64,000 nucleotides of DNA, from NCBI GenBank assembly GCA_050633245.1, contig JBOEGD010000024.1, forward strand, positions 351,513 through 415,512, written 5' to 3'. The stretch is from Calditrichia bacterium. Its GTDB lineage: Bacteria; Calditrichota; Calditrichia; RBG-13-44-9; J075. Shown piece by piece: positions 16,208 to 63,895 of the stretch (the stretch's first letter is position 1; every line of letters starts with the position of its first letter). A program made the translations under genes and the position numbers. The notes beneath the pieces are model-generated. The model was not told where the DNA came from and made no database searches. It was given only the letters and a program-made list of their open reading frames with translations.

Positions 16208-17212
16208 ATGATGATAACCGACCCACAACTAAAAGTTGGTAGTTTCTACCGGGAAAATCGCGAACGACTGAAGCTGGAGCTCCTTACTACGGATGCCGGT
16301 TTTGACCGTCTGATTACTGAGAGCGAGCTGCATCGCCCTGGCTTGGCACTGGCTGGATTTATTAAACTTTTTACATTTCATCGCGTGCAAATTCTTGGGA
16401 ATACCGAGACCCGCTATCTAAAAAGCCTGCCAAAGAAGAAGCGTCGGGAAGCATTGGAAAATCTCTTTCAGTTTGAAATACCCTGTCTTATTATCACCGA
16501 GTTTAACGATGTTTCGAGCGATATGCTTGACATTGCGACGCGCCGTTATATCCCAATTTTTCGCACGACTTATCCCACAACCAAGTTTTATCATTTATTA
16601 AGCGATTTCCTGCAAATGTTCTTTGCGCCGCGAACTACCGTCCACGGCACGCTGGTGGATGTCTATGGCGTAGGAATGTTGTTAACCGGGCGCAGCGGAA
16701 TCGGCAAGAGTGAAATTGCTCTGGACCTTATCGAGCGCGGCCATCGTTTGGTTGCAGATGATATGGTTATTATTACCCGAAAATCGGAAGAGATCGTTAT
16801 GGGAGAAGGACGCGATATTTCGGAACATATTATCGAAATTCGCGGTCTTGGTTTAGTCGATATTCGGCAAACTTTTGGTGTTCGCGGCGTTCGCGTAATC
16901 AAGCGAATTGAGGTTATTGTAGATCTGGTTGAGTTTGATGAAGATGCTTCCTATGACCGCACCGGCCTGGATGCACAGACAAAATCAATTCTGGATGTTG
17001 AACTGCCTAATGTGCTTCTGCCGATAAACCCTGGTAAGAATATTACGGTGATTGCCGAGACCATTGCGCTGAACCAACTGTTGCGCGAAGTGCATGGGCA
17101 CAACACCCCTGAAGAATTTAACAAACGATTAATGGAAAAAATGCGTAGGGCAGAGCGAGAACATCTGCGTAAGCTAAAGACACGCGATTTTCTGGATAAG
17201 GATTTTGAGTAA
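16208..17212 (+). CDS. hprK: HPr(Ser) kinase/phosphorylase
   Basis: HRPGLALAGF, HGTLVDVYGVGMLLTGRSGIGKSE, LVADD, EIRGLG. Confidence 0.96.
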   Translation: MMITDPQLKVGSFYRENRERLKLELLTTDAGFDRLITESELHRPGLALAGFIKLFTFHRVQILGNTETRYLKSLPKKKRREALENLFQFEIPCLIITEFNDVSSDMLDIATRRYIPIFRTTYPTTKFYHLLSDFLQMFFAPRTTVHGTLVDVYGVGMLLTGRSGIGKSEIALDLIERGHRLVADDMVIITRKSEEIVMGEGRDISEHIIEIRGLGLVDIRQTFGVRGVRVIKRIEVIVDLVEFDEDASYDRTGLDAQTKSILDVELPNVLLPINPGKNITVIAETIALNQLLREVHGHNTPEEFNKRLMEKMRRAEREHLRKLKTRDFLDKDFE

Positions 17213-17598
17213 TGATTCCAGGTATCATTATCAGTCATGGTAGAATAGCTGAAGAGCTTAAGAATGCCGTTGAGTTAATTGTAGGACCAACTCGTAAGCT
17301 ACATGCCATTAGCAATGATGGAAGTGAGCCGGACGAACTCTCAAAAAAAATTTTGAAATTTTCTCTGCCTGAGTTGCCGGTTTTTCTGTTCACAGATTTG
17401 CGCGGAGGAAGCTGTTGGAGAGCGGCGATGATTGCCTCAAAAGCAATTGATGAGTCCAGCGTTTTTACCGGAGTGAATTTACCCATGCTTATCTCATTTG
17501 TTACCAAGCGCTCACAGCTGTCTCATGAAGAACTTCCGGCAGTCGTATTAGAAGATGCACAGCGTGGATTACTTTTAGAAAAGAAGCCTGGCGGTTAA
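17212..17598 (+). CDS. PTS mannose/fructose-type EIIA component
   Basis: IIISHG, TDLRGGSC, GVNLPML; translationally coupled to hprK. Confidence 0.88.
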   Translation: MIPGIIISHGRIAEELKNAVELIVGPTRKLHAISNDGSEPDELSKKILKFSLPELPVFLFTDLRGGSCWRAAMIASKAIDESSVFTGVNLPMLISFVTKRSQLSHEELPAVVLEDAQRGLLLEKKPGG

Positions 17599-17627: not shown

Positions 17628-17656
17628 TTGACACTTCATACCGGTCGTATTATATT
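17628..17656 (+). promoter_or_regulatory. Sigma70-type promoter of tRNA-Gly
   Basis: TTGACA-N17-TATATT, ending 11 nt upstream of the tRNA. Confidence 0.75.
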
Positions 17657-17667
17657 GATTGCCCAAT

Positions 17668-17740
17668 GCGAGAATAGCTCAGCTGGTAGAGCACAACCTT
17701 GCCAAGGTTGGGGTCGCGGGTTCGAGTCCCGTTTCTCGCT
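17668..17740 (+). tRNA. tRNA-Gly(GCC)
   Basis: Full cloverleaf: GCGAGAA/TTCTCGC acceptor, CAACC-TTGCCAA-GGTTG anticodon arm, GCGGG-TTCGAGT-CCCGT T arm, U73; CCA not encoded. Confidence 0.97.
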
Positions 17741-17741
17741 C

Positions 17742-17781
17742 AAGAGCCATTTCGATTTATCGGAATGGCTCTTTTCTTTTT
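17742..17781 (+). terminator. Intrinsic terminator after tRNA-Gly(GCC)
   Basis: AAGAGCCATTTCGA-TTTA-TCGGAATGGCTCTT followed by a T-rich tail. Confidence 0.85.
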
Positions 17782-17868
17782 ATGAGCAACAAAATTAAAA
17801 AACACCCTTTAAGTTTTTGTATATGAATCACATCCTATCTCTCGTAATTGCTTTTATTACGTGGGTCT

Positions 17869-17940
17869 GCGAGAATAGCTCAATGGGCAGAGCACGACCC
17901 TTCCAGGGTTGGGGCACAGGTTCGAACCCTGTTTCTCGCT
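17869..17940 (+). tRNA. Atypical tRNA-Gly(TCC), apparently derived from the adjacent tRNA-Gly(GCC)
   Basis: Identical acceptor and D stems; CGACC-CTTCCAG-GGTTG anticodon arm; 4-nt variable loop; ACAGG-TTCGAAC-CCTGT T arm; U73. Confidence 0.75.
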
Positions 17941-17942
17941 CT

Positions 17943-17982
17943 AAGGCCATCCCGATATTTCGGGATGGCCTTTACTGTTTTA
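17943..17982 (+). terminator. Terminator hairpin after the second tRNA, homologous to 17742
   Basis: AAGGCCATCCCGA-TATT-TCGGGATGGCCTT then TACTGTTTT. Confidence 0.75.
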
Positions 17983-18034
17983 TTGAATGAAAGGATCATC
18001 GTTGCTGCAGCCTTCAGGTTGTCTCAAAGCACGC

Positions 18035-26594: not shown

Positions 26595-27383
26595 TCAAAA
26601 ATCTTTTGCCAGAAATTTTTTCAGGGCTAAGCGATAAGGGATGTAAAACCAAAGTATCAGCAGGGCAGAGCTGACGCCTATCCCCACTATGCTGCCGAAA
26701 AAACGATGAAAAATAGCTCCGGTGTAGCCCATGAGAGCTGCTATGTCCATTTCCATTAGCAATAGAACTCTTGCCAAATCTACCGGATTTAGAGCGGTTA
26801 AAACAATAAGGGCATTTTCCAGCGGGTAGTTGCTCATAAGAATGGTTATAAACAGGACCATCGCGTCATACAGAATCACCAGTGTCAGCCAGACAATTAA
26901 CGTTATTCCAAATCCACGTAGCCTGTCATCAAAGCGCAGTGCAATCAGAAAAGAAATCGCAACAAAAATTGCCGTGAGCATCATTCCACATAAGATCAAT
27001 AAAGTCAGGACGCTGATGTTTTGGGCTGAGTAGGTATAATGAGTAAGAAATGGAATGAGTACACCAATAAAAAAGCCGATAACCAATGGACCTGTAAGAC
27101 CGGTGTATAGGCCAACGAAGAGTGTTTTCCGGTGAATCGGTTGAGCGAGCATCATTTCAATATATTCACGTGCTCCATAGAGATAAATCACTCCAAATGT
27201 TATGCTCATAAGCGGGATAATAGTAATAATTAAGTTCAAAAGACTAAGAAGAACTTTACTGTCGTCTCCCAAACGAAATAGCACTTCCGTAATTCCCCAA
27301 AAGAATAAACCGTACAGGATAACCCAACGATTACGTGCAACATTTTGCAGTTCATAAGGTAGTAGCTTCGTAAGCGTTGTCAT
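26595..27383 (-). CDS. nosY: NosY ABC permease
   Basis: Multi-TM, LAQPIHR, LNPVDLARVLLLM, ALMGYTGA; within the nos cluster. Confidence 0.9.
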   Translation of the reverse strand: MTTLTKLLPYELQNVARNRWVILYGLFFWGITEVLFRLGDDSKVLLSLLNLIITIIPLMSITFGVIYLYGAREYIEMMLAQPIHRKTLFVGLYTGLTGPLVIGFFIGVLIPFLTHYTYSAQNISVLTLLILCGMMLTAIFVAISFLIALRFDDRLRGFGITLIVWLTLVILYDAMVLFITILMSNYPLENALIVLTALNPVDLARVLLLMEMDIAALMGYTGAIFHRFFGSIVGIGVSSALLILWFYIPYRLALKKFLAKDF

Positions 27384-28087
27384 CAGTTTTCTCCCGCCAT
27401 CAAATTGGCAACGGCACGTTCCAGCCGTTCTTCTCCGGTCAGCTCAATCATTGTGGAAAGCTCTCCGCTATAAATGATCTTCCCTTCGTTGAGGTAGATC
27501 AGCTTGTCGGCTAATTCTTCAATGTCGCTCATCACATGAGACGTTAGCAGAACCGTTGCTCCCTGCGCACGATATGCAGCAATGTGTTCCTTTAAGATGC
27601 CTGCGGCCAATGGATCTAAACCTGCCGTGGGTTCATCCAAAATCAGAACATTTGGTTTAAACATAAACGCCAGTGCTGCGCTCAGCTTTTGGCGGGTTCC
27701 TCCGGAAAGAGTATGGACTGGTTTCGCCTCTTCTCCGGCCAACATAAAACGTTGCCAGAGGGTTAAATCATAGCTGGATTCCGAGCGTATGTTGCGAATG
27801 AGGGATACCACTTCAGCAACCGACAGATTATCCGGGTATCTGGCAATCTGCGGCATGTAGCCAATCTGAGACCGATAGTCCGGGTTGCTGTTTACATGAT
27901 GGCCATTAACCGTCATTTCCCCTCTGTTTGGACGAACGAGCCCTAATAGAGACTTTATGAGCGTGGTTTTTCCACAGCCATTATGGCCGAGGATTGCCGT
28001 AACTTCACCGGGTCGCATTTCGGCATTCAAATCTTCAAAAACACTTAGTTTTCCATAGGCTTTACACAGGTTTCTTATTGTAATCAT
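27383..28087 (-). CDS. nosF: NosF ABC ATPase
   Basis: GHNGCGKT, LSGGTRQK, LDEPTAGLDP; between nosD and nosY. Confidence 0.9.
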   Translation of the reverse strand: MITIRNLCKAYGKLSVFEDLNAEMRPGEVTAILGHNGCGKTTLIKSLLGLVRPNRGEMTVNGHHVNSNPDYRSQIGYMPQIARYPDNLSVAEVVSLIRNIRSESSYDLTLWQRFMLAGEEAKPVHTLSGGTRQKLSAALAFMFKPNVLILDEPTAGLDPLAAGILKEHIAAYRAQGATVLLTSHVMSDIEELADKLIYLNEGKIIYSGELSTMIELTGEERLERAVANLMAGEN

Positions 28088-29367
28088 CGCTTGAACCTCT
28101 TCATCGCCGGCCGCGTGTCCACAAGGGTTTCCGGAGTCAGGACGGGAAAAACCCGTTCAGCAACATCCAGTAGATCTACAAAAATACTTCGTAGCAAAAT
28201 TAGAGAAGGAGGATGCTTTTCTACAATCAGAGCAAAGAGGCGCACCGGTCTGAAAGGAACATCTCCTGTCCCGTCTTTATCGAGATCATAGCCGTTATAA
28301 GCACTCCAGTAGTTTCCTTCAAATCGACTAAAATTATTGCGACTGTTTGTTGCTACATCGAAGGCATTAGCAATAAAGTTGTTTTCTGAAACCTGGTTCT
28401 GAGTGCAGTTCGCCATTATCTTTACTGCCCAACCATTAGATTGAAAAGTATTGCGGACAACCTCAGTACGATTTGAATTTTCGAGATACATTCCGATGGA
28501 GTTGCCGGTAAAGTGATTTGCGCGAATACGACTGTCAGAAATGTCTTTTAGCAATAAGCCGTAGGAGGCACTTCCCCAATTGTGCTCAAAGCGATTGCTG
28601 TCCATTTCAACATTCTTGGTATACATAACGGCTACACCGGCACCGTTACGCCGGAACGTATTGGCGATATAGCGACAATGATCTGAAAACATAAAGTGCA
28701 GACCGTAGCGAAGGTTTCCTGTGCAGGTATTGTTCTTCACAAAACCATTCTTTACAAATTCAAAATATATACCGTCACGATGTCCGATCACCTCATTGTT
28801 ACTCACAACTACGTCCTTGCAATACCAAAGGTGGATACCATTTGCTGAAGCAGATTGGCGGACTGTGTTCGCAATAATTTTATTACCGATGATTCTGGAT
28901 CCCTGAGACTTTGCCAGATAGATTGCAAAAAAATTGTTGATGAATCGACAGTTTTCGATAACGCAATAGTTCACGCTTTCAATTTTGATTGCAGCACGAT
29001 CATCGATAAAGCTGGTTCCGCAGCGCGTTAGTGTTAAACCACGAATGCGTACGCTGTCTGCCGTTACGGTAAATATCTGACGCAGGCTGTCTCCATCGAA
29101 AACCGGATTGCCAATTCCCTGAATAGAAATCGCCTTGTTTATAATAATTGTTGGCTCTTTATACGTGCCGGCAAATACTCGAACGCTGTCGCCGCCTTGC
29201 GCTGCGGCGATAGCATCTGAAAGGGTTGCAAAACGCTGATTGGGACCGACAAGATGCGTTTCGGCATTTAGCCTCAAGCTAAAAATTGCACTGTTAAAAA
29301 GAATAGCCAGCAAAAAGAAAAGGAGCTTCCTCTCGAAGAAATTCTGGCGTGTTATTGCAGCATACAT
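28084..29367 (-). CDS. nosD: NosD copper-maturation beta-helix protein (start uncertain, 29367-29403)
   Basis: NGIHLWYC, HRDGIYFEF, LRYGLHFMFS, GNYWSAYNGYDLDKDGTGDVPF. Confidence 0.93.
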   Translation of the reverse strand: MYAAITRQNFFERKLLFFLLAILFNSAIFSLRLNAETHLVGPNQRFATLSDAIAAAQGGDSVRVFAGTYKEPTIIINKAISIQGIGNPVFDGDSLRQIFTVTADSVRIRGLTLTRCGTSFIDDRAAIKIESVNYCVIENCRFINNFFAIYLAKSQGSRIIGNKIIANTVRQSASANGIHLWYCKDVVVSNNEVIGHRDGIYFEFVKNGFVKNNTCTGNLRYGLHFMFSDHCRYIANTFRRNGAGVAVMYTKNVEMDSNRFEHNWGSASYGLLLKDISDSRIRANHFTGNSIGMYLENSNRTEVVRNTFQSNGWAVKIMANCTQNQVSENNFIANAFDVATNSRNNFSRFEGNYWSAYNGYDLDKDGTGDVPFRPVRLFALIVEKHPPSLILLRSIFVDLLDVAERVFPVLTPETLVDTRPAMKRFKR

Positions 29368-29383
29368 AACGATTTTCCCTACA

Positions 29384-30409
29384 CTATTTCTGTGTGGACG
29401 CAAATAATTGTGTTTTGGGCCAATCCATTAAGGTTCCGCCTAAGTCTTTCTGTAGCTGTTTTGCCTGGCTTTTTGCACTGACAGCTAAAACGCCAAGTCC
29501 CATTGGACTTCGAATCTTTTTACTGTAGAGGTAAATGGCTGACGTGGCATCAATAAGTAGACCAGGCTTTTGCCAGTCCGTTACCCACATTGAATGCGCT
29601 TTTTCATCAGGGGCGAGCGAAAATGCCACCAGACACTCGATGGAGTCGAAGGTATACACTTTATGCGTATCTGTAACGAGCTCTGCTCCAAAACGTGCAT
29701 CCGATATCCCCATCATGCAGAGGGAACATGCATCTTCGTTATAGCGAATCTCTCGTGGCTTTGGTTCGCATGAGAAAAGACTTAGCGCTAAAATTGCCAG
29801 CAGAGAGCCGTTGATAACTTTTGCTGCTGCTAGATTTTTTGCTTTGCGCCATGGAAGTGAGGCCCAACCGGCAAGCAAGATAGAAAGAATGACCAGATAG
29901 CCACCCGATGCCGGAAGTGAAATAGCGGTAAAATTGAGCAGTTGCTTTCGTCCGATCACTGGTGGTTGATAGGACATTCCGGGAATCTTAATGATGGCAT
30001 TTTCCTGATCCAGATTATGTCCATAATCATAACCCCAGAGGTAAAAGTCGTATAGGCCTGCCGCGCTGAGCATTAAAAAGGTGGCCAGCCATAGTAAGAG
30101 AAGTTTCCGCTTTCCCGTATAGGCGACTAAGAGCCCAAAAAGCATCATAAACCCAATTATATAGGGCATGTACTTAAGTTCAAGAATTGAATCAGGCACG
30201 ATCTTCTTCATGCCGATATAGTGGTTCAGATTATTGATTTTACTCAGGTCGTGTGGATTTTGTCCGTCAATCGTGTCAACCCAAATTCGCAATCCAATCC
30301 CTTCAGGATACTGAGGTGCTTCCAGCGAAATATTCCAAAGTGGCATAAAGTAGACGCCCACGAGTAATAGAGAGGCGATGGTCATGATAATACGGGATTT
30401 GACTGTCAT
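29384..30409 (-). CDS. nosL: NosB-like membrane protein fused to NosL copper chaperone
   Basis: N-terminal PLWNISLEAPQYPEG...NLNHYIGM...YQPPVIG (NosB-like); C-terminal CSLCMM, FDSIECL, SPMG (NosL). Confidence 0.85.
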   Translation of the reverse strand: MTVKSRIIMTIASLLLVGVYFMPLWNISLEAPQYPEGIGLRIWVDTIDGQNPHDLSKINNLNHYIGMKKIVPDSILELKYMPYIIGFMMLFGLLVAYTGKRKLLLLWLATFLMLSAAGLYDFYLWGYDYGHNLDQENAIIKIPGMSYQPPVIGRKQLLNFTAISLPASGGYLVILSILLAGWASLPWRKAKNLAAAKVINGSLLAILALSLFSCEPKPREIRYNEDACSLCMMGISDARFGAELVTDTHKVYTFDSIECLVAFSLAPDEKAHSMWVTDWQKPGLLIDATSAIYLYSKKIRSPMGLGVLAVSAKSQAKQLQKDLGGTLMDWPKTQLFASTQK

Positions 30410-30450
30410 TTTCTCAAACTCCCGGCTACGAATTTGCAGCCTTTAGTGGT

Positions 30451-30480
30451 GGAAGAAGCGGACATTCGCCCGCTTCTTCC
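30451..30480 (-). other. Stem-loop immediately 3' of nosZ (no U tract; possible mRNA stabiliser or attenuator)
   Basis: GGAAGAAGCGG...CCGCTTCTTCC inverted repeat. Confidence 0.6.
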
Positions 30481-30486
30481 TGATAG

Positions 30487-32451
30487 TTAACGCTTGTTAT
30501 AGCTTATTGCCAGACTTGATGTTGCAGGAGAGACGCGAACATACCCCTGCATTTCCTGGTGCAGCGCAGAACAAAAGTCCGTGCAGTAAAATGGAAATAC
30601 ACCAATTCTGTCTGGATACCAAACAAGAGTTCTTGTCTCCCCAGGCATGACCAGTAGCTCGGAGTTATTTGCCCCCATTACAGCGAAGCCGTGTGGCACG
30701 TCCCAATCCTGCTCCAGATTTGTGATATGCCAGAAGACTTTGTCACCAACTTTCACACCTTCAATATTGTCTGGAGTAAAGTGGCTGCGAATAGTTGAAC
30801 AGTAGATATGAACTTCTTTACCGTTTCTCTCGACCCGAGCCTCTTTTTCTGACTTGATCGCGAAAGGGTGCGTGTTCTCTTCAATTGGAAACATTTTTGT
30901 CGAGTTTGCCATAATCAATTCTGCCGGCAGAGCCTGGGCATAGTGCGGCTCACCGAGTGTGGGGAAGTCCAGCAAAAGCTCCATTTTATCACCAGAGATA
31001 TCGAATAGCTGAGCGGAGTGCGCGAGTTCCGGGCCCGTCGGCAGATAGCGATCTTTAGTGATCTTGTTCAAGCCGATAACATATTTCCCCCACGGCTTCT
31101 GACTATCTCCCCCGGGAATCATCAGGTGTCCGATGGAATAATAGCACGGTACTCTATCGACTACTTCCCAGGTTCCGAGTTGCCACTTTACGATCTCAGA
31201 GGAAATGAATGCCGACGTATAGGCATAGCCCTTGCCATCGAACTCGGTATGTAGAGGGCCAAGACCCGGATTTTCCACTTCGCCAGCGAGAACGGCTTCG
31301 TATTTCAGGACAGGAATTCCATCCACTTCGCCTTCAAACTCTTTGTCTTCAATTGCTTTCAACATTTTTGTAAACGAGTGGACCGGGATAATCGTTGCCA
31401 GTTTACCACCGGCCACGATGTACTCACCGCTTGGATCGACGTCAACGCCATGAGGTGACTTCGGAGTCGGCAAATAATAGATTAGACCGGGTATTTCTTT
31501 GGGGTCAAGCATCCGGACAGATGTCTTTTTCTCTGACACTGCGCTTCTGCTACCATGATCCATGTAGTTGTGATAATACTCTGCCGGCACCGTGCGAAAA
31601 TTCCCTTGTGCCAGCGCTTCTTCAGCTTTTTTCCAGTTTACCGCTGCGACAAAGTCCTTATCGTTCTGCGAGGCATTGATTTCAAGCAGCTCATTGGCCT
31701 CTTCAGTATTGTACGATGTGAAAAATGACCAGCCGTGTGAAGGACCTTTGCCGGAGTGAGAGAGATCGTAATTATATCCGGGAACCAGAATTTGGAATGC
31801 CAGTTCCATATGGCCTTTATCGTTATATGGATCGATGAAGGTCATTGTGCCCTTGAAGTGCTTCTTGTATTCAGAAATCGGTACGTCTTTCTGCGGAATT
31901 GGAACGCTAAAACGCGTTGAGGCGACAATATACTCCGAATTCGGTGTTACGAATGGAGATGCGTGATTACCACCGGAGTGTGGGATCTCGATGATTTCAT
32001 CGGTTTCGAAATCTTTGAGATCTATTCTGGCAATTCGCGGCGTATTGTTACCGTTGATGAATATGGATCGCCCGTCCGGTACGCCGTCAGTCATGGATAG
32101 TTCCGGGTGGTGCGCATCATCCCAAGGGATAAAGCCATGACTGGTCATCAGCATGCCCTTGGTTTCTTCGGCATATCCATAGCCGTTCTCGGCGTTTTGC
32201 GAGAATACCGGAATAACGCGAAATAATCGTCCTGAGGGCAGTCCGTATACAGTGAGCTGGCCACTGAATCCACCGGAGAAGAAACCGTAAAACTCATCAT
32301 ACTCTCCAGGTGGCACATACACTTTCGAAGCTGCGTCACTTCCGGTGAGAAGCGGCTGTTTTTGCCCGCTACAGGCAATGGCAATACCGAGCAAAACGGC
32401 GACAATCCCCACAATTTTGCCAAGCCTCTTTAAAAGGTTCATACTTAACAT
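30487..32451 (-). CDS. nosZ: Clade II (Sec-dependent) nitrous-oxide reductase, lipoprotein signal
   Basis: WDDAHH, GNH, PKSPHG, GPLH, EPH CuZ motifs and CuA FYCTDFCSALHQEM. No RR signal; AIAC lipobox. GGAGGT RBS before ATG 32451. Confidence 0.97.
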   Translation of the reverse strand: MLSMNLLKRLGKIVGIVAVLLGIAIACSGQKQPLLTGSDAASKVYVPPGEYDEFYGFFSGGFSGQLTVYGLPSGRLFRVIPVFSQNAENGYGYAEETKGMLMTSHGFIPWDDAHHPELSMTDGVPDGRSIFINGNNTPRIARIDLKDFETDEIIEIPHSGGNHASPFVTPNSEYIVASTRFSVPIPQKDVPISEYKKHFKGTMTFIDPYNDKGHMELAFQILVPGYNYDLSHSGKGPSHGWSFFTSYNTEEANELLEINASQNDKDFVAAVNWKKAEEALAQGNFRTVPAEYYHNYMDHGSRSAVSEKKTSVRMLDPKEIPGLIYYLPTPKSPHGVDVDPSGEYIVAGGKLATIIPVHSFTKMLKAIEDKEFEGEVDGIPVLKYEAVLAGEVENPGLGPLHTEFDGKGYAYTSAFISSEIVKWQLGTWEVVDRVPCYYSIGHLMIPGGDSQKPWGKYVIGLNKITKDRYLPTGPELAHSAQLFDISGDKMELLLDFPTLGEPHYAQALPAELIMANSTKMFPIEENTHPFAIKSEKEARVERNGKEVHIYCSTIRSHFTPDNIEGVKVGDKVFWHITNLEQDWDVPHGFAVMGANNSELLVMPGETRTLVWYPDRIGVFPFYCTDFCSALHQEMQGYVRVSPATSSLAISYNKR

Positions 32452-32529
32452 GTTCATACCTCCAATTTTTTTAACAGATAATGCAATCAATACTCGATTA
32501 CCCGGTTAGGGTTACTTCAAATGCTCTTA

Positions 32530-33018
32530 TCAGTGACTCGTCCTTGCTTCCAGTCTCAGATATTCCAGGATTTTTCGCGCGTCTTCTTCTGTCACGTTTT
32601 GGAAGGCCATTGGTGTGTAATACTGCGCGAGCAGCCTCTTGACTTCCGGGTGATATTTAATCATCGATGCCGGATCGAGAATCATATTCATTATGAATTC
32701 AGGTGAACGGCGTATCGCAACGTCGCCGAGAGGTGGGCCAACATAGCGTTCGCTCATTTTATGGCAGACGCTACACTTGGTTTCGAAGATTTTCTGACCA
32801 CTGGCAGCTATCTTTTCATCAATAGGGTCTAGCTTCATTTCTTCTTTAATCGGACCCATTCCATGAATTAATTGCCATTCATTGAGTGCGCCCTCGGGAT
32901 TGTTCTTCTTGGCGTATTTGGTTGGTTTTGGCTTGCCACCCGATTCGGATGAATCCGGGCCGCAGCTCATAAGAACTCCGATAAGCAGGAGCGCTAAAAT
33001 CTTAAATAAGCACTTCAT
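32530..33018 (-). CDS. Monohaem cytochrome c lipoprotein of the clade II nos cluster
   Basis: Lipobox LMSC, CSVCHK, YVGPPL, MILDP. Confidence 0.9.
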   Translation of the reverse strand: MKCLFKILALLLIGVLMSCGPDSSESGGKPKPTKYAKKNNPEGALNEWQLIHGMGPIKEEMKLDPIDEKIAASGQKIFETKCSVCHKMSERYVGPPLGDVAIRRSPEFIMNMILDPASMIKYHPEVKRLLAQYYTPMAFQNVTEEDARKILEYLRLEARTSH

Positions 33019-33036
33019 AAAGTCTCCAATTCAGTT

Positions 33037-33057
33037 TTAAGAGTCTTTTGTCTTTAA
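33037..33057. promoter_or_regulatory. Candidate Rrf2 operator upstream of cytochrome c/nosZ
   Basis: TTAAGAGTCTTTTGTCTTTAA, 17/21 identical to 33541-33561. Confidence 0.6.
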
Positions 33058-33072
33058 TTATTGTAAATTTTT

Positions 33073-33525
33073 TTACTTTTTTGTCTCTTTTGATACGTCT
33101 TCAATCCTAAGTCCTTCACTGGTAATCTTGTTTGCCAGTCCTGCAACTGTCGTTTCCGCCAGCATTTGCTGTAGACCGGCTCTGTAGTCTGACCATTGTT
33201 CGTGAAGGGGACATGGTTGCTGTTCGCCGCATCCGGGCAGACCAAGAATGCATTCTTCAAAAATCTCTTTGCCGCTTATGGCAATGACGATTTCGGCGAT
33301 TGAGATATTCTCCGTCGGCTTCGCCAGCGCAACTCCACCTTTTGGTCCGCGATAGGAATTCATTATGCCTTTCTGAGTAAGCGTTTGCAGAATTTTTGTG
33401 AGGAAGTGGAAGGATATTCCCAATTCTTTTGCAATACGCTTTATCGGCACGAATTCTTTACCGCCGTAGCTGGCGGTAAATAAAACGGCGCGAATAGCAT
33501 AAATACATGTTTTAGAGAGTATCAT
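33073..33525 (-). CDS. Rrf2-family transcriptional regulator with three Cys (Fe-S ligand candidates)
   Basis: LSKTCIYAIRA, SYRGPKGG, ECILGLPGCGEQQPCPLH. Confidence 0.93.
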   Translation of the reverse strand: MILSKTCIYAIRAVLFTASYGGKEFVPIKRIAKELGISFHFLTKILQTLTQKGIMNSYRGPKGGVALAKPTENISIAEIVIAISGKEIFEECILGLPGCGEQQPCPLHEQWSDYRAGLQQMLAETTVAGLANKITSEGLRIEDVSKETKK

Positions 33526-46453: not shown

Positions 46454-46495
46454 GATGATATCTACAATATATCGAGCTTATTGATAGAAGGACGA

Positions 46496-49400
46496 ATGCG
46501 TATGACTCGCAAAACTCTATACTACCTATTTATTAGTCTGTTGTTTTCAGCATGCTTTACTACCCTGTTTGCACAGGAAGCAGTAGCTAAAGCTGAGAAC
46601 ACTGAAGAGACAGGTTTATCTGCAGGCACGGCAATAAACTTTTTTCCAAAGATTATTGTTGTCGATGGATCTGCTATTGGTACCAGCCTTGCCGATTTTG
46701 ACAACGATGGCTTAATGGACATCTATGTCTTCACGGCGAATAATCAAAGTAACTTTTTACTGCGTAATACCACATCTTCGCCCGGGACATTTACCTGGGA
46801 TGAGGTAACGTCCGGGGCAATCGTTACGGACGATAACAAGACTCGCGCCGCCAGTTGGGGCGACTATGACAACGATGGTGATCTCGATCTTTTTACAGTA
46901 GACCGTGATGATGGTCTACAGAATTATTTATATCGCAATACCGATCCTTCAGCAAATCCATCCTTTACGCAGGTCGGCTTTCCCAAAAACGGCATTCAGT
47001 CTGAAGGCTGCAGCTGGGCAGACTATGACAATGATGGTGACCTGGATATGGTCATTAGTAATGACGACGGCGATGACGCAATCGTGCTGGAGAATGACGG
47101 TAGCGGTGTTTTAAGTAGTCGATCTCTGGGAGATCTTACCGGTAGTGGTGGGATTTCTCGGGCGTTAAGCTGGGCGGATTTCGATAATGATGGTGATGTT
47201 GACATATTTATCGCTAATGAAAGTGGCAAAAGCCTGCTGCTCGAAAACAGATTAATACCGACCGGAACCGTCGACTTTTTCGATGTAAGTAATTTATTGC
47301 CAGACGTCAGCTCCAACGATGCAGAAGGAGGCAGCTGGGGCGATTATGACAACGATGGCGATTTGGATCTTTTTGTCACTTTTTTTAACGGGCAAGATAA
47401 TGTTCTGTTCGAGAACCTGCTGGAGCAGGGGAGTAGCGCATTCACCGATATTATGTTCTCGGATGGTGAACCATCCTATGGCGGTGCCTGGGGGGATTTT
47501 GATAATGATGGCGATTTAGACCTCTATGTCGGCAACGACAATGATGGTAGCGGCAATAATATCTTCTACGAAAATGATGGCTCATCGCCACCCTGGTTAC
47601 CCTCAAATGTTGGGAATCCACCGGTCGATGACAATGCTGAAAGTCGTGGACTTGCTACCGCAGATTTCGACAGCGATGGACACCTGGATATCTTTATCGC
47701 AAATGTTGGCCCCTCAGGTGATCGCGACAATTTTATGTACCTCAATCAAGGTGGCTCCAATAACAGTATTCGCATTATGTTGGAGGGAACGACATCCAAT
47801 CGCTCCGGAATTGGTGCGCGGGTAGAGGTGTGGGATAATGGAAATCGCCAAATTCGCGAAATAACCGCACAAACCGGGTATGGAGCGCAAAGCAGCTTAT
47901 GGGCTCATTTTGGTGTGGGATCGGCAACGGTGCTCGATTCAATTATTGTGCGCTGGCCGAGTTCACCGGCACAGACGTTAACTAATGTAAGCTGGGATCC
48001 CACCACGCCATACTTAATTGTTGAATCGGATGTCAGCCCGGACATTGCTGTAGACCCTTCTAGCTATAATTTTGGTGATGTTCAAATAAATCAAACCAGC
48101 GACCACATTTTTACTGTTACCAACGATGGTGATGCGAACTTGCACATTTCCAATAGCATCTTTGTGGGTACCAACTCAGGGCTATATAGTATTATCAATG
48201 GATTTTCACCACCGGTGAATCTGGATCCGGCACAGTCTGCCGAGATCGAAGTGCGCTTTGCGCCGACAACGACTGGCCAGAAAAACGTTATTCTGCGTTT
48301 AAACTCTAATGACCCGGATGAAGACCCGCTGAACATTATTATTACCGGAGAGGGGATTCCAATTCCGGTTCCAGATATCCAGATATCCGAAACATTTATC
48401 GATTTTGGGAGCGCCGACACCAGTAGCTTTGTGAATGAAACGCTGAATATTGGAAATGTGGGGACAGCGCCCCTCACGCTAAACGCGATTCAGATAAGCG
48501 ACAATCCTTCCGAGTTTTCAGTTATTGGTTTTTCGCCACCGGTTACTATTCCTTCCGGCGATAACATTGACGTGACGCTGCGCTTTTCACCTGATTTGCT
48601 CGGAACGCGCACGGGAAAGGTTCAAATTTTAAGTAATGATCCGGACGAAGGCACGGTAACGGTTGACCTTCAAGGAACGGGGCTTGAAGTGCCGCAGCCG
48701 GATATTGCTATTCTTCCTTCTTCCTATAACTTTGGAACCGAATTTGTTGGAAATCTGGACTCGACCAACTTTACGATTAAAAACCTTGGGAATGCGGATC
48801 TCAATCTAACCACAGTCCAACTGATTGGGGCAAATGTCAGTGAGTTCTCTACAAACCTGGGTTCTTTTTTGCCGGCACAGTTGTCTGCAGGAGACTCTGC
48901 GGAGTTTAAAGCCGGGTTTCTGCCGACCAGCCTGGGAACAAAATCTGCCAGTATTCGCATTACCAGTAATGATCCTGATGAAGCCATTACAGATGTGCTC
49001 TTAAGCGGAAATTCTATTGCTGTTCCGGTGCCGGAATTAACCACAAAACCCGACCCACCACTACTCGCTTTTGGGCAGGTTTTTATTGGTGACACGCTGG
49101 ACTTACCTCTGGTTTTGCTTAACAGCGGAACGGCTACCCTTACTGTCACTGATCTGGTACTTAGCCATACCGATCGGGGCTATCGCTTTAACTCGGAAAC
49201 TTTTCCGATAACTATTCCCGCCGGAGACAGTTCTATTGTGACGGTCTCATTTGAGCCATTACAAGCAGGTTTTTCAACAACGGCTCTCACGGTAAGCAGC
49301 GATGACCCCAACTCGCCCTCTCTACCCGTTACTTTGGAAGCTACAGGCACGTCGGTGCCGGTTGCCAATATTGATGTCGATCCAACCTCTCATAACTATG

Positions 49401-52400
49401 GCTCAGTTCGTCTTGGTACTGCTGGAACGCGTACCTTTAGAGTGACTAATGTGGGGACAGCCGATCTTACTGTTTCCCCACTTACAATTACCGGTAGTCA
49501 CCCGCTGGATTTTATTATCAATAATGCGGCAGGTTTTACGCTAACACCTTCGCAGTTTAGGGATATTGTTGTCGACTTTGAACCAACTGCGCTTGCCGGT
49601 CGTACTGGAAATTTACGTATTCCCTCTAACGATTTGGGAACGCCGGTTACGCTGGTTCCTTTAGGCGGGCTTGGAACGCTGCCGCAAATTTCGGTAAATC
49701 GGGACACGTTAAACTTTGGGCAAATTCAAGTCGGCAGTTCGCTGCAGACACTGAATCTGCAATTGCAGAATACCGGAACGTCGGTTTTGACTGTTGATAG
49801 TCTTACGTTGGCTAACAGCAATCCTGCATATTTCGATACGCTCAGCTTTAACGGTCCGCAGTTAATTCAACCGGACTCAACGCTTTTGCTCGGCATCAAT
49901 TTCTTACCTGCTGCAATTGGAGACTGGCGTGGAACACTATCTGTTTGGAGCGATGATACGATAATGCCTCCGCCGATTGACGTGGCGCTGATTGCCGAAG
50001 TTGTTGCTGAGCCGGTTCCGAATATTTCGGCCTCACTCGATTCCATTTCCTTTGGTGAAATGGTCATTGTAAATAGTCAGATCAATCGCAGCGTGACGGT
50101 GCGAAATATCGGTTCGGACACGCTGTTTATCAGCGGAATCTCGACTCTGGCTCCGGATGGAAATCGCTTCAATATTATTAGCGGTGCAGATGCCGATACC
50201 TTACTTCCCAGCGCAGCGCAGATTATTTCCATCGATTTTATTCCCGATATCGCACGCGAATATTCCAGTCAGCTACAAATTTTAAGTGACGATCCCGATA
50301 TGAATGATCTGCGAGTCATTTTGCAAGGAACGGCGATCGAGGAGCCGGCACCGGTCTTGGGAATAAGTGCCGACACGCTGAATTTTGGAACTCGGCAAAT
50401 TGGTTCGACCGCGCCGTTGCGAGTCCTCAAAGTGTTCAACACGGGCAATTTAGAGCTGGATATTTCGGATGTAACAGTGACGCCGAATGAAACTTTTTTC
50501 GAGATCGTATCCGGAGGAGGCAGCTTTCAAATTGTTCCCGGTGATAGTCAGGAGATTACGGTTCGCTTTATTACTGAAAACGGACCTGATGGCTCAAAAC
50601 AGGCCACTTTAAATATTGTATCGACAGATGTTACTATCGGAACTGTAGAGGTGCTTCTGGAGGGGATTCTCTCACTTGAAGGTGGTCTGGTGTTGAACAG
50701 AGATATTCTACAATTTAATCAGGTTGGAATTGATAGCCTTGCTGAATTGAGCGTAAATATGGATAACGCCGGTATCAGCCCTCTCACTATCGCTCTACAG
50801 CTAGATCCTGATGCGACTGGAATCTATGTTGTCTCGCCACAAAACTTTATGCTGGACGGTGGTGAAGATCAGCAGGTAACGATTGGATTCAGGCCAACGG
50901 AGCTTGGGTCCTACAACTCGTTTGTCGACGTATATGTTGATGGAAATCTGGAAGAAACCGTTAATCTGCGAGGAGAGGGAAAGCTGCGTAGCGGAGTCTG
51001 GCTAAAAGTACAGCCGGATACCAGCCTTGTTTTCGATACGACGCCTGTCGGCAAGAGCAAAACTCAACAGCTAATGGTGCGTAATGTTGGCCTTGAGGAT
51101 GCGCAATTAGACACGCTGGTTGTTTCCGGAAGCGGCAATAGTCAATTTCTGCCACCGGTTATTTCAACAGATGCTCGGGTGATACCCAGTAATGAAACGA
51201 AACAATATGCGATTGTTTTCCAACCGCAAGAGCCGGGCCCGGCTACTGGACAGGTAACTGCCCAGTCTAATGATCCGCGCGGTGCGCTTTCTCTTGATTT
51301 GAGCGGTGTTGCGAACTTAGAGGCCATTCGCATTGCTCCCGATTCAATTTTTATCAGTGTTCCACCTACTGAAGGGCAGGCAGCAACCATCGAAACCGGC
51401 GTCGGCGGATCGGTGCGCGATGTTTTTCTGTTCTATCGAACAGGTACCGACTTTATCTCTTCCGGTGAGAAGGCCATTACGGATTCAATTCCAATGAACT
51501 TGCAGAATGGTCGCTACCGAATTGATATAGATGCGGCCGCAATTACCGCGACCGGACTGCAGTATAAAATTCGTGCGCGTAATGCCACCAGCAGCGATTC
51601 GCTGGACTTCAGAGATTTGAAAATTGGCATCAGTAATTTCTCCGCAGTGCAGGATGAAAGTAATTTTCCATTCGGTATACCGCAGGGGGGCTGGCAGGCG
51701 ATAGCAATTCCATTTGCTTTCAACGGCTCCATTTCCCTGTCGAATCTTCTGGGAGCACAGGAAACCGTTGGAGGCAAGCCGGTAAACTGGGGAGCCTATG
51801 AGGTTGATGATAATGGCAACATCAATCCGGTGCTCAATTTACAGGACGGCAATGGTTATTGGCTTTATCACACAGAAGCGCAGAACGTGTTTTTGCCTAT
51901 CAGCTCCGCCCAGACGAATGACTTGGACTCGTTTGGAGAACAGGAACTGAGTAATGGCTGGAATCTGATTCCCTGGACCTACAGCTTTACCGGATATCTT
52001 AGCTATAAGCCGGGAGCCGAGCAGTTAATAAATTCGGTGTGGACACAATTTAATAGCGAGAATGAGCGTATTGCCGATCAGCTGGGTGTGCAGCAGGCAA
52101 AAGTATTGCGGCCTTATAGCAGCTATTTTGTTTTTGTTGAGCAGGGACCGGTGTTCGTGAAAGAGCTCTTCGATATTTCGCTTACGCAACCCACTGTAAA
52201 ATCCACTGCCAAATCGAGTTCAATTTCCACGCCGGTTTATCTGGATCTGACCCTTCATGCTGCGTCTTATACAGATCGTTATAATACCCTGGCAACCACT
52301 CCAGCTGCACAAAATGGTTTTGATACGTATGATGAATTTGAACCACCATCTTTGGCGGAGCGAATGCGCATGTTTTTCTACGATCCTGAAGATGAGGCTG

Positions 52401-52981: not shown

Positions 52982-53016
52982 TTTCTTAATCATTCGTTTC
53001 TGTTAAGGGAACGTCA

Positions 53017-63790: not shown

Positions 63791-63875
63791 GCCCGGGTGG
63801 CGGAATTGGTAGACGCAAGGGACTTAAAATCCCTCGGAGTAATACTCCGTGCCGGTTCGAGTCCGGCCCCGGGTA
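63791..63875 (+). tRNA. tRNA-Leu(TAA)
   Basis: GCCCGGG/CCCGGGT acceptor, AGGGA-CTTAAAA-TCCCT anticodon arm, long variable arm, GCCGG-TTCGAGT-CCGGC T arm, A73. Confidence 0.96.
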
Positions 63876-63895
63876 CTCAGTAAAAACAATAGTTT

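Follow-up and report, generated by a model that had tools for sequence, protein, structure and literature searches.

Introduction

To our knowledge, the documented cases of dedicated non-proteinogenic tRNAs are essentially confined to cell-wall synthesis in staphylococci. The staphylococcal NP1-NP3 tRNA-Gly(UCC) species serve as glycine donors for FmhB, FemA and FemB; their anticodon stem has six pairs and closes a loop of five bases, and their lineage is reported to be restricted to staphylococci (PMC7826273). According to the same source, glycine tRNAs ordinarily require a tight T stem because glycine itself is a weak EF-Tu binder. The literature that we searched, largely at the level of listings, gave no description of non-proteinogenic tRNAs of this kind outside staphylococci. 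Among the weak-binding outliers in Table 4 of Schrader and Uhlenbeck, two with a second, normal copy are tRNA-Gly(GCC) of Acaryochloris and tRNA-Ala(CGC) of Sorangium; in the portion of that study used here, such outlier tRNAs are regarded as candidates for functions outside translation (PMC3239215).

Here we describe a tRNA-Gly(UCC) gene from a Calditrichia bacterium, examined within a window of 64 kb (the whole stretch of DNA that was analysed). The gene arose by a lineage-specific tandem duplication of the adjoining tRNA-Gly(GCC) gene, terminator included. With the staphylococcal tRNAs it shares the UCC anticodon, the full glycyl-tRNA synthetase (GlyRS) identity set reported for them (G1-C72, C2-G71, U73, C35 and C36) and a possible extra pair that would shrink the anticodon loop to five bases (PMC7826273). 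It likewise has A49-U65 and A51-U63 instead of G49-U65 and G51-C63, with a predicted EF-Tu binding of -9.7 kcal/mol against -9.5 kcal/mol, and it is probably an extra copy besides the proteinogenic isoacceptors. Unlike the staphylococcal tRNAs, it has C50-G64 rather than U50-A64, two of the three T-stem pairs being identical, and it has kept both G18-G19 and the T-loop TTC, which they are reported to have lost (TGC or TGT; PMC7826273). It is a recent copy of the bacterium's own GCC gene, as seen in the acceptor stem, the anticodon stem and the terminator, which points to an independent origin. Its host also differs from staphylococci: proteins with type IX secretion sorting domains are part of its proteome, and nothing indicates a pentaglycine bridge. 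Like the Schrader-Uhlenbeck outliers, the tRNA has a T stem predicted to be far weaker than that of its class and, probably, a normal copy in the genome. Unlike them, it lies 1.1 kcal/mol from the class mean, under the 1.3 line given in the part of that study used here, and it combines the weak T stem with a 32-38 pair and with variable-loop and D-loop changes that recur elsewhere (PMC3239215).

Results

The tRNA locus and its surroundings comprise the following features.

16208-17212, + strand: HPr kinase gene (Pfam PF07475/PF02603), conserved anchor upstream of the tRNA locus
17212-17598, + strand: PTS EIIA-man gene (PF03610), conserved anchor upstream of the tRNA locus
17628-17656, + strand: putative sigma-70-like promoter for tRNA-Gly(GCC), TTGACA, 17 bases, TATATT (pattern match)
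17668-17740, + strand: canonical tRNA-Gly(GCC), first copy (ARAGORN, 17668-17741; Rfam)
17742-17783, + strand: terminator after the first tRNA, a hairpin of 14 pairs (17742-17773) and a T tract
17784-17868, + strand: rest of the inter-tRNA spacer
17869-17940, + strand: remodelled tRNA-Gly(UCC), second copy (ARAGORN, 17869-17941; Rfam)
17943-17982, + strand: terminator after the second tRNA, a hairpin of 13 pairs (17943-17972), homologous to the first, and a weaker T tract
63791-63876, + strand: tRNA-Leu(UAA) (ARAGORN)

The HPr kinase/EIIA-man pair stands at the same place upstream of Gly(GCC) in relatives G008 and G012, with about 65% amino acid identity (tblastx). A consensus scan found 11 of 12 matches in the promoter of the first tRNA and no promoter-like site upstream of the Gly(UCC) copy (17657-17868). 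The first tRNA has G49-U65, C50-G64 and G51-C63 in the T stem, U32 and A38 in the anticodon loop and five bases in the variable loop, and its orthologues in relatives are 90-98% identical. The second has C32 and G38, A15/C48, a variable loop of four bases (GGGC) and the T-stem pairs A49-U65, C50-G64 and A51-U63; it retains G18-G19 and the T-loop TTC (D loop AATGGGCA, T loop TTCGAAC). Against a gathering score of 29, the Rfam tRNA model gave 69.5 bits for Gly(GCC) and 63.9 bits for the Gly(UCC) copy. The minimum-free-energy fold was a cloverleaf for neither window tRNA, which is common for unmodified tRNA sequences, and these folds were left out of the evidence.

A BLAST comparison aligned the first tRNA and its hairpin to the second with 78% identity (query positions 1-112 of 114 bases). 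The match spans tRNA and hairpin, and therefore the tRNA plus terminator was duplicated as one unit, as the first-pass annotation of this DNA had proposed. Both copies have G1-C72, C2-G71, G3-C70, C35, C36 and U73, the GlyRS identity set, and differ at 14 positions. From the GCC to the UCC copy these are G15A, C16U, U17G, U20C, A28G, U32C and G34U, followed by A38G, loss of U47, G49A, G51A, G59A, U60C and C63U. Four of the 14 changes fall within the 42 stem positions, and pairing is kept in all four (G28-U42, A49-U65 and A51-U63); the binomial probability of four or fewer stem changes is 0.028. The replacement of G51-C63 by A51-U63 is a compensatory double change. That annotation had also listed the retained identity elements and paired stems, the GCC-to-UCC anticodon change, A49-U65, A51-U63, A15 opposite C48, and G38, all of which can be read directly from the two copies.

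In the anticodon arm, C32 and G38 may pair, giving a stem of six pairs and a loop of five bases. With this pair the computed cloverleaf energy changed from -24.4 to -28.0 kcal/mol, an improvement of 3.6. EF-Tu binding was estimated with the additive model in Table 2 of PMC3239215, using a baseline of -10.1 derived from Table 3 of the same source, these being the parts used here. The model predicted -9.7 kcal/mol for the Gly(UCC) copy versus -11.2 for its Gly(GCC) neighbour, -11.2 for every canonical Gly tRNA of relatives, and -9.5 for the staphylococcal cell-wall tRNA-Gly. Thus, the earlier claim that the T-stem pairs weaken EF-Tu affinity holds on these numbers. The mean of the Gly(UCC) class is given as -10.8 kcal/mol, so that the copy falls 1.1 short of it, under that source's outlier line of 1.3, and -9.7 lies within the range reported for elongator tRNAs of other classes (PMC3239215).

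The Gly(UCC) copy is the only Gly(UCC) gene in this assembly, and GGA and GGG make up 39% of the Gly codons of this genome. In relatives, Gly(UCC) belongs to a cluster Thr-Tyr-Gly(UCC)-Thr(GGT)-tuf; at 9 of 9 loci it includes both Gly(tcc) and Thr(ggt), with tuf next. Here contig C41 begins within tRNA-Tyr, after Thr(TGT), and contig C12 terminates within tuf, at EF-Tu model position 120; the stretch that corresponds to this gap spans about 0.7 kb in G008. Thr(GGT) is also absent from the assembly, yet ACC and ACT account for 51% of Thr codons. A 60-base stretch of C41 had no match among metagenome contigs. The seven distinct canonical Gly(UCC) sequences of the phylum have the loop CTTCCAA (C32/A38), G49-U65, C50-G64 and G51-C63, and a 5-base variable loop; their genes lie between tRNA-Tyr or Thr(TGT) and Thr(GGT), upstream of tuf. 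Our copy shows none of these canonical features, be it the CTTCCAA loop, the T-stem set, the variable-loop length or the position. As the assembly breaks inside a cluster in which all nine relatives examined carry the canonical gene, the copy is most likely an extra gene, with a canonical one presumably in the gap between C41 and C12. If the gap held no canonical gene, the copy would have to decode GGA and GGG. The first-pass annotation had counted a sole tRNA-Gly(TCC) against its own reading; that is what the assembly contains, but with a gap where the relatives carry the canonical gene.

BLAST searches of 15 other genomes of the family detected no orthologue of the Gly(UCC) copy. The block is, in contrast, conserved in contigs of two other populations, with 96-98% identity. 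Contigs of runs X2 and X3, both from one study, cover 17687-17983 with 12 of 297 letters different and no gaps (96%), and their flanking genes are 83-89% identical to those of this genome; an X1 contig covers 17809-17980 with 4 of 172 letters different (about 98%). Conservation in relatives, which had been suggested as a check, is thus lacking in the family genomes and present in these contigs. An exact-pattern scan for the core of the copy gave no matches in genome contigs and none in metagenome contigs, and no sequencing run contained more than 0.08 of the sampled words.

We searched for tRNAs with the same features using a pattern in which the D arm and G38 were forced and the T stem was left free; the D-loop length was adjusted for an alphaproteobacterial family. 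Within the phylum, 3 of 86 genomes matched, namely this genome (G000), G039 and G081, and so did 4 of 121 sampled genomes of the alphaproteobacterial family (G041, G042, G492 and G498), the G042 tRNA having a 7-base D loop. A different pattern, YTTCCARN{14,15}TTCRA, returned mostly chance matches in four genomes. Six other genomes from two phyla therefore share the feature set in Gly(UCC) genes. C32/G38, A51-U63 and a variable loop of four bases are common to all six distinct sequences of these odd tRNAs, and their predicted EF-Tu binding is -9.0 to -9.7 kcal/mol. Elsewhere they have U73 and a G1-C2-G3 acceptor, each acceptor stem resembling the host's own Gly tRNAs, and they differ at 49-65/50-64 (AU/CG, AU/UG, GC/AU or GC/UG). 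Neither G38 nor A51-U63 occurred in any of 28 distinct canonical U73 Gly tRNA sequences. G039 and G042 also possess a canonical Gly(tcc), typed with ARAGORN, and a tRNA that shares 96% identity with the canonical Gly(tcc) of G042 is present in both G492 and G498. Judged by these sequences, the odd tRNAs are extra to a canonical UCC tRNA in every genome where this could be assessed (G039, G042, G492 and G498).

Genes of the FemAB family adjoin the odd tRNA at two of the six judgeable loci. In G042 the tRNA is last in a same-strand run in which a FemAB-like gene (PF13480, PF02388) is accompanied by genes for a Polysacc_synt flippase and an ATP-grasp protein; among solved structures, the FemAB-like protein best matched 6snr_A, a Lipid II:glycine glycyltransferase (E 7.8e-6), with FemX next. 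In G041 a PF13480 gene (E 7e-23; BspF-like GNAT) begins 160 bases downstream on the same strand. With 6 PF13480 matches genome-wide in G041 and 7 in G042, rough arithmetic puts chance adjacency at about 0.4% and 1.4%, respectively. Because G041 and G042 come from a single family, the two odd tRNAs are probably homologous rather than independent cases. BLAST found no similarity of the two Fem-like neighbours to each other or to genes of this genome. No Fem-like neighbour was present at G039 (within 10 kb) or at G492 and G498 (within 3 kb), where the odd tRNAs neighbour a TonB-dependent receptor and an Ala-like odd tRNA (G039) or an MFS transporter (G492, G498).

This genome has five PF13480 genes, three of them also with weak PF02388 matches. 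Two (C27:171442-172404 and C1:325809-326759) stand in surface-polysaccharide clusters that also contain genes for DegT aminotransferase, asparagine synthase, sulfotransferase and flippase; the remaining three are a PEP-CTERM-associated gene (C1:141581-142642) and genes on C4 and C18. No orthologue of the C27 gene occurs in 15 other family genomes, and a solved-structure sequence search matched neither its protein nor the G041 neighbour. PF13480 matches are also found in relatives that lack the odd tRNA (six in G008, four in G012, five in G003), while G039 and G081, both carriers, have a single weak match apiece; the presence of Fem-like genes thus does not separate genomes with the odd tRNA from those without. 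Lipid aminoacylation of the MprF type was considered and rejected, the PF09924 domain (LPG_synthase_C) not being found in the genome (completeness 97%). Of the FemABX, MprF and GNAT transferases that the first-pass annotation had named, the genome therefore offers the five PF13480 genes and no MprF-type domain, and domain searches located no Fem-like gene in the 64-kb window.

Discussion

The changes in the Gly(UCC) copy match those of staphylococcal cell-wall tRNAs and recur in unrelated bacteria, and the tRNA is therefore probably a glycine carrier outside protein synthesis. That it is a dedicated non-ribosomal glycyl donor is a reading to which we give roughly even chances. The duplicate kept all that GlyRS needs (G1-C72, C2-G71, G3-C70, U73, C35 and C36) together with the elements of the L-shape, and was remodelled at sites relevant to translation: the UCC anticodon, C32 and G38, which can pair, the lost U47, and A-U pairs at 49-65 and 51-63. 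GlyRS would charge it as usual, a low affinity for EF-Tu and a poor anticodon loop would keep the Gly-tRNA off the ribosome, and the activated glycine could then pass to a transferase of the FemAB/GNAT (Acetyltransf_6) type that depends on aminoacyl-tRNA, with amino-sugar nucleotide intermediates as candidate acceptors. The most plausible candidate partners are the C27 and C1 genes in the polysaccharide clusters. We infer that the tRNA is expressed, charged and avoids EF-Tu and the ribosome, as we infer the enzyme that uses it. The strong-looking terminator of the first tRNA, with no promoter-like site ahead of the copy, speaks against the dedicated-donor reading. Diversion from the ribosome, the core of the earlier interpretation, is thus partly supported: the weak predicted T stem, the possible C32-G38 pair and the recurrence speak for it, the sole Gly(UCC) status in the assembly and the kept G18-G19 and TTC against it.

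A possible but rather unlikely alternative is an ordinary translational tRNA, an additional or the sole decoder of GGA and GGG, whose odd features are tolerated or tune decoding. Since G18-G19, U54-U55-C56 and purine 37 are kept, the copy could work on the ribosome; the intact cloverleaf with its GlyRS identity set, the 39% of Gly codons left to the only Gly(UCC) gene assembled, and a predicted binding inside the other-class elongator range and under the 1.3 line (PMC3239215, in the part used here) would all suit such a role. The assembly gap, however, falls exactly at the canonical gene's place in the relatives' cluster, and tRNAs with the same features are extra to a canonical UCC tRNA in four other genomes. 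The absence of G38 and A51-U63 from all 28 canonical sequences, and the tight T stem that glycine normally demands (PMC7826273, as far as drawn on here), also argue against ordinary decoding.

Another role outside translation appears improbable, whether in regulation, as a decoy, in supplying some other class of enzyme that uses aminoacyl-tRNA, or as an attachment-site remnant. The features themselves point to translation avoidance alone and not to a particular user, and the distance from Gly(GCC) to Leu(UAA), which comes next within about 50-130 bases at 16 of 19 loci in relatives, is 46 kb here. Nevertheless, no MprF-type domain was found in the genome, and FemAB-family genes are the sole gene-neighbourhood signal anywhere. 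A mobile island or attachment remnant was rejected: the 30 ORFs at 14076-63703 are ordinary chromosomal genes (HPr kinase, two-component systems, a nos cluster, kinases and type IX secretion sorting-domain proteins), domain searches found no integrase, transposase or phage family among them, and the tRNA is full-length rather than a 3' fragment. Least probable is a redundant duplicate drifting to a pseudogene without a function of its own: the upstream terminator and missing promoter-like site, the A15/C48 combination, which is not a standard Levitt pair, and the lack of an orthologue in 15 family genomes would fit, but 14 changes broke no pair and included one compensatory double change, as the first-pass annotation had argued, the full-length gene scores 63.9 bits with all stems paired, the block is more conserved in other populations (96-98%) than its flanking genes (83-89%), and the same changes occur in other lineages.

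Returning to the glycyl-donor reading, we tentatively consider a wider version of it, which may well not hold: bacteria beyond staphylococci would repeatedly have made ribosome-avoiding glycyl carriers from spare glycine tRNA genes of their own, for FemX/FmhB-like GNATs. The route would be shared each time (UCC anticodon, C32-G38 pair, loss of U47, A51-U63), the hosts being an alphaproteobacterial family and a small phylum whose proteins include some with type IX secretion sorting domains, and glycine would be added to surface polysaccharide precursors, not to peptidoglycan. If this is true, such systems would have the shared changes in common as determinants of recognition or avoidance.

Annotation treats genes of this kind as ordinary tRNA-Gly(UCC), and here, in an incomplete assembly, this masked the absence of the real decoder. 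If the donor reading is correct, the tRNAs would form a second, independently arisen class that reached the same T-stem and anticodon-arm solution, sometimes in an operon with a FemX/FmhB-like gene. Their sequence signature would be available for finding such tRNAs in genomes, and many uncharacterised FemAB-family genes in polysaccharide clusters would gain a testable substrate. The partitioning of aminoacyl-tRNA between the ribosome and other pathways would then be a general evolutionary solution.

A glycine tRNA with weakened predicted EF-Tu binding

Two glycine tRNA genes stand in tandem in the window, and the second is a remodelled copy of the first.

tRNA genes and associated signals in the window (gathering score of the Rfam tRNA model, 29)
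17628-17656, promoter-like site TTGACA-17-TATATT, upstream of the first tRNA gene
17668-17741, + strand, tRNA-Gly(gcc), ARAGORN; Rfam tRNA model 69.5 bits
17742-17773, terminator-like hairpin of the first tRNA gene
17869-17941, + strand, tRNA-Gly(tcc), ARAGORN; Rfam tRNA model 63.9 bits
17943-17972, terminator-like hairpin of the second tRNA gene

A search ahead of the second gene found no promoter-like site. Between the two tRNAs there are 14 differences: G15A, C16U, U17G, U20C, A28G, U32C, G34U, A38G, loss of U47, G49A, G51A, G59A, U60C and C63U. Both retain G1-C72, C2-G71, G3-C70, U73, C35, C36, U8 and A14, together with G18-G19, U33 and the T-loop TTC. Of the 14 changes, nine map to the D loop and T arm. 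Four fall among the 42 stem positions, each keeping its pair; so low a number of stem hits has a binomial probability of 0.028. Comparison of the copies bore out the first-pass annotation in every detail it had observed.

We estimated EF-Tu affinity from the additive free-energy values for three T-stem pairs in the Schrader and Uhlenbeck model, and took -10.1, from Table 3 of the same paper, as the baseline (PMC3239215). Predicted binding is -11.2 kcal/mol for the first window tRNA and all canonical glycine tRNAs of relatives, and -9.7 kcal/mol for the second window tRNA; the same source calculates -9.5 kcal/mol for the staphylococcal cell-wall tRNA. The second tRNA is predicted to lie 1.5 from its neighbor and 1.1 from the Gly(UCC) class mean of -10.8 kcal/mol, short of the 1.3 that defines an outlier in that work, where weak outliers with a second, normal gene copy are treated as candidates for functions outside translation.

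In Staphylococcus aureus, proteogenic glycine tRNAs are described as having G49-U65, C50-G64 or U50-A64, and G51-C63, and non-proteogenic ones A49-U65, U50-A64 and A51-U63; in the non-proteogenic UCC tRNAs the anticodon stem comprises six pairs and its loop five bases (PMC7826273). C32 and G38 of the window tRNA can form the same sixth pair; with it, the computed energy of the cloverleaf improves from -24.4 to -28.0 kcal/mol. Unlike the staphylococcal tRNAs, the window tRNA still has G18-G19 and the T-loop TTC.

The most likely reading, to which we give about an even chance, is that the second gene would supply a glycyl-tRNA held off EF-Tu and the ribosome and serving a FemAB-family transferase. 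It draws on the predicted binding energies, on a canonical gene that the assembly probably conceals and on parallels in other genomes.

A canonical Gly(UCC) gene very likely lies in an assembly gap

The main rival, possible though clearly less probable, is that the second tRNA is a working decoder of GGA and GGG, which make up 39% of glycine codons in this genome. The assembly (59 contigs, 97% complete) yields 35 tRNA genes by ARAGORN, among them a single Gly(gcc) and a single Gly(tcc), and its 36 Infernal matches contain no other glycine tRNA. The separate canonical Gly(TCC) gene that the first-pass annotation had asked about is therefore absent from the assembly itself. In nine of nine relatives' cluster loci (G008, G012, G007, G002, G013, G033, G040, G038 and G023), Gly(tcc) lies directly upstream of Thr(ggt) and tuf comes next; Tyr or Thr(tgt) precedes Gly(tcc) in eight. 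An assembly break coincides with this expected site: contig C41 starts inside tRNA-Tyr, which comes after Thr(TGT) on the minus strand, and contig C12 breaks off within tuf, at position 120 of the EF-Tu model. Thr(GGT) too is absent from the assembly, and ACC and ACT account for 51% of threonine codons in its long open frames. Because the assembly is cut here, Thr(GGT) is missing and all nine relatives' loci carry Gly(tcc), a canonical Gly(UCC) gene very likely lies within the gap, which would span roughly 0.7 kb. When 60 bases of C41 were searched against metagenome contigs, no match was returned. The 177-base tRNA-Thr(TGT)/tRNA-Tyr spacer (G000:C41:74-250), which abuts the contig end at the gap, is 74% G+C, against about 45% genome-wide.

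The same remodelling in other genomes

A scan of all species genomes for the T arm ACAGG/CCTGT at the proper spacing downstream of a UCC anticodon loop gave nine loci, four of them called Gly(tcc) by ARAGORN. Two of these four, in G041 and G042 of one alphaproteobacterial family, combine U73 with a glycine acceptor stem, and they share three features that the pattern left free: G38, a 4-base variable loop and C20. A second pattern, with the D arm and G38 forced and the T stem free, matched three of 86 genomes of the window's phylum (its own, G039 and G081) and, with a shorter D loop, four of 121 sampled genomes of the alphaproteobacterial family (G041, G042, G492 and G498).

Among all glycine tRNAs gathered in this analysis, C32/G38, A51-U63 and a 4-base variable loop are common to the six distinct remodelled sequences, whose predicted binding is -9.0 to -9.7. 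All 28 distinct canonical U73 sequences have A38, G49-U65 and G51-C63 (predicted -11.0 to -11.2), and one has the 4-base loop. Extra-copy status could be judged in four genomes, G041 and G081 being too fragmentary: G039 and G042 carry a canonical Gly(tcc) besides the remodelled tRNA, as well as gcc and ccc genes, and both G492 and G498 contain a tRNA with 96% identity to the canonical one of G042. Every remodelled tRNA shares its acceptor stem with the glycine tRNAs of its own host. Relative to its GCC parent, the window copy shows the same changes as the G042 copy does relative to a neighboring CCC gene: U20C, A38G, U47 loss, G49A and G51A/C63U. The remodelling therefore arose independently at least twice, once in the window's lineage and once in the alphaproteobacterial family, and perhaps a third time in the G039/G081 pair.

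Other tRNAs came to light in these scans. In G039, an Ala-like tRNA (L124:9954-10028, minus strand, contig C14; 53.9 bits, tRNA model) lies 5 bases upstream of the remodelled Gly(UCC). It has G3-U70, A73, A49-U65, A51-U63 and an abnormal anticodon arm (4-base 'cttg' in ARAGORN), and looks like a second non-decoding tRNA paired with the glycine one. Two UCC tRNAs with A73 and acceptor stems unlike those of bacterial glycine tRNAs, L066:477-552 (Ruminococcus MAG) and L062:5123-5197 (Vicinamibacterales MAG), may be anticodon-shifted tRNAs of another identity; the former resembles a tRNA-Val(TAC) gene at locus L065, in a different genome.

Candidate FemAB-family partners

The remodelled tRNA of G042 is the last gene of a same-strand run after FemAB-like, Polysacc_synt flippase and ATP-grasp genes. 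The FemAB-like gene matches PF13480 (7e-11) and PF02388 (5e-10), and its top solved-structure match is a Lipid II:glycine glycyltransferase (6snr_A, E 7.8e-6), followed by FemX and FemA. In G041, a PF13480 gene (7e-23), with a likeness to BspF-like GNATs under the NCBIfam cut-off, begins 160 bases downstream on the same strand. With six PF13480 matches in G041 and seven in G042, rough arithmetic puts the chance of such adjacency at about 0.4% and 1.4%, respectively. No Fem-like gene was found within 10 kb of the remodelled tRNA in G039, within 3 kb in G492 and G498, or in the 64-kb window. Such a neighbor thus occurs at two of six judgeable loci, both in one family, which counts against a general rule.

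The first-pass annotation had suggested a search for FemABX, MprF or GNAT aminoacyl transferases. The window's genome has five PF13480 genes, three also with weak PF02388 matches and one a PEP-CTERM-associated FemAB equivalog (TIGR03019, 346 bits); no MprF-type domain was found in it. Because relatives lacking the remodelled tRNA have four to six PF13480 matches, the presence of these genes alone does not discriminate. Two of the five, C27:171442-172404 (no orthologue in 15 other family genomes) and C1:325809-326759 (orthologue in G004 only), sit in clusters that also encode DegT aminotransferase, asparagine synthase, sulfotransferase and flippase. These surface-polysaccharide clusters (G000:C27:164541-179118 and G000:C1:324534-329121) each carry a FemAB-like GNAT, a DegT aminotransferase, a sulfotransferase and a flippase; that on C27 also has two asparagine-synthase paralogues.

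Origin, conservation and locus

By BLAST, the first gene with its hairpin matches the second at 78% identity over positions 1-112 of a 114-base query. The match spans gene and hairpin; tRNA and terminator were therefore duplicated as one unit, as the annotation had held. Since it shares its acceptor stem exactly with the genome's own GCC gene, and has a GCC-type anticodon stem and a homologous terminator, the second tRNA derives from that gene; it differs from the phylum's canonical UCC genes, whose anticodon loop reads CTTCCAA and whose T stem is GCGGG/CCCGT. None of 19 relatives' Gly(gcc) loci has a second glycine tRNA, and none of 15 other family genomes has an orthologue; the duplication is restricted to the window's lineage.

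Conservation was found in other populations. No sequencing run containing most of the window was found. A 5.4-kb contig in runs X2 and X3, of one study, spans 17687-17983 without gaps, differs there at 12 of 297 positions and extends into the gene downstream, where identity is about 83-85%; another X2/X3 contig carries the HPr kinase gene at 89%. A 172-base contig of run X1 covers 17809-17980 with four other letters. Judged by these contig identities, at least two other populations have the tRNA-spacer-tRNA-terminator block, and in them it is more conserved than the flanking coding sequence. With all four stem changes keeping their pairs and the block conserved, the annotation's argument against simple decay stands, and we reject a decaying copy or attachment remnant.

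Leu(taa) follows Gly(gcc) within about 50-130 bases in 16 of 19 relatives' loci; in the window it lies at 63791, 46 kb off. The HPr kinase and EIIA-man genes upstream of the tRNAs are syntenic with G008 and G012, and this synteny is absent from the 46-kb stretch past them. A mobile island is ruled out by the ordinary chromosomal functions of that stretch, where no integrase, phage or transposase family occurred among 30 ORFs scanned; this is a rearranged chromosomal locus. The genes that adjoin in most relatives are separated here by 17982-63790, and in G007 (contig C79) by about 58 kb; rearrangement, or the insertion of ordinary chromosomal genes, seems to recur at the Gly(GCC)-Leu(UAA) junction. 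The window also holds a nitrous-oxide reductase cluster (26595-33525: NosZ-type propeller protein, NosL, NosD, ABC ATPase and c-type cytochrome), adjoined by an Rrf2 regulator, and, at 46481-52981 on the + strand, a 2166-amino-acid open reading frame whose C-terminal region (about 52706-52984) is like the sorting-domain tails of other window proteins.

In conclusion, the second tRNA gene is an intact, conserved, lineage-specific duplicate. If it does serve a FemAB-family transferase, the contents of the two surface-polysaccharide clusters would fit glycylation of an amino sugar of the surface polysaccharide.
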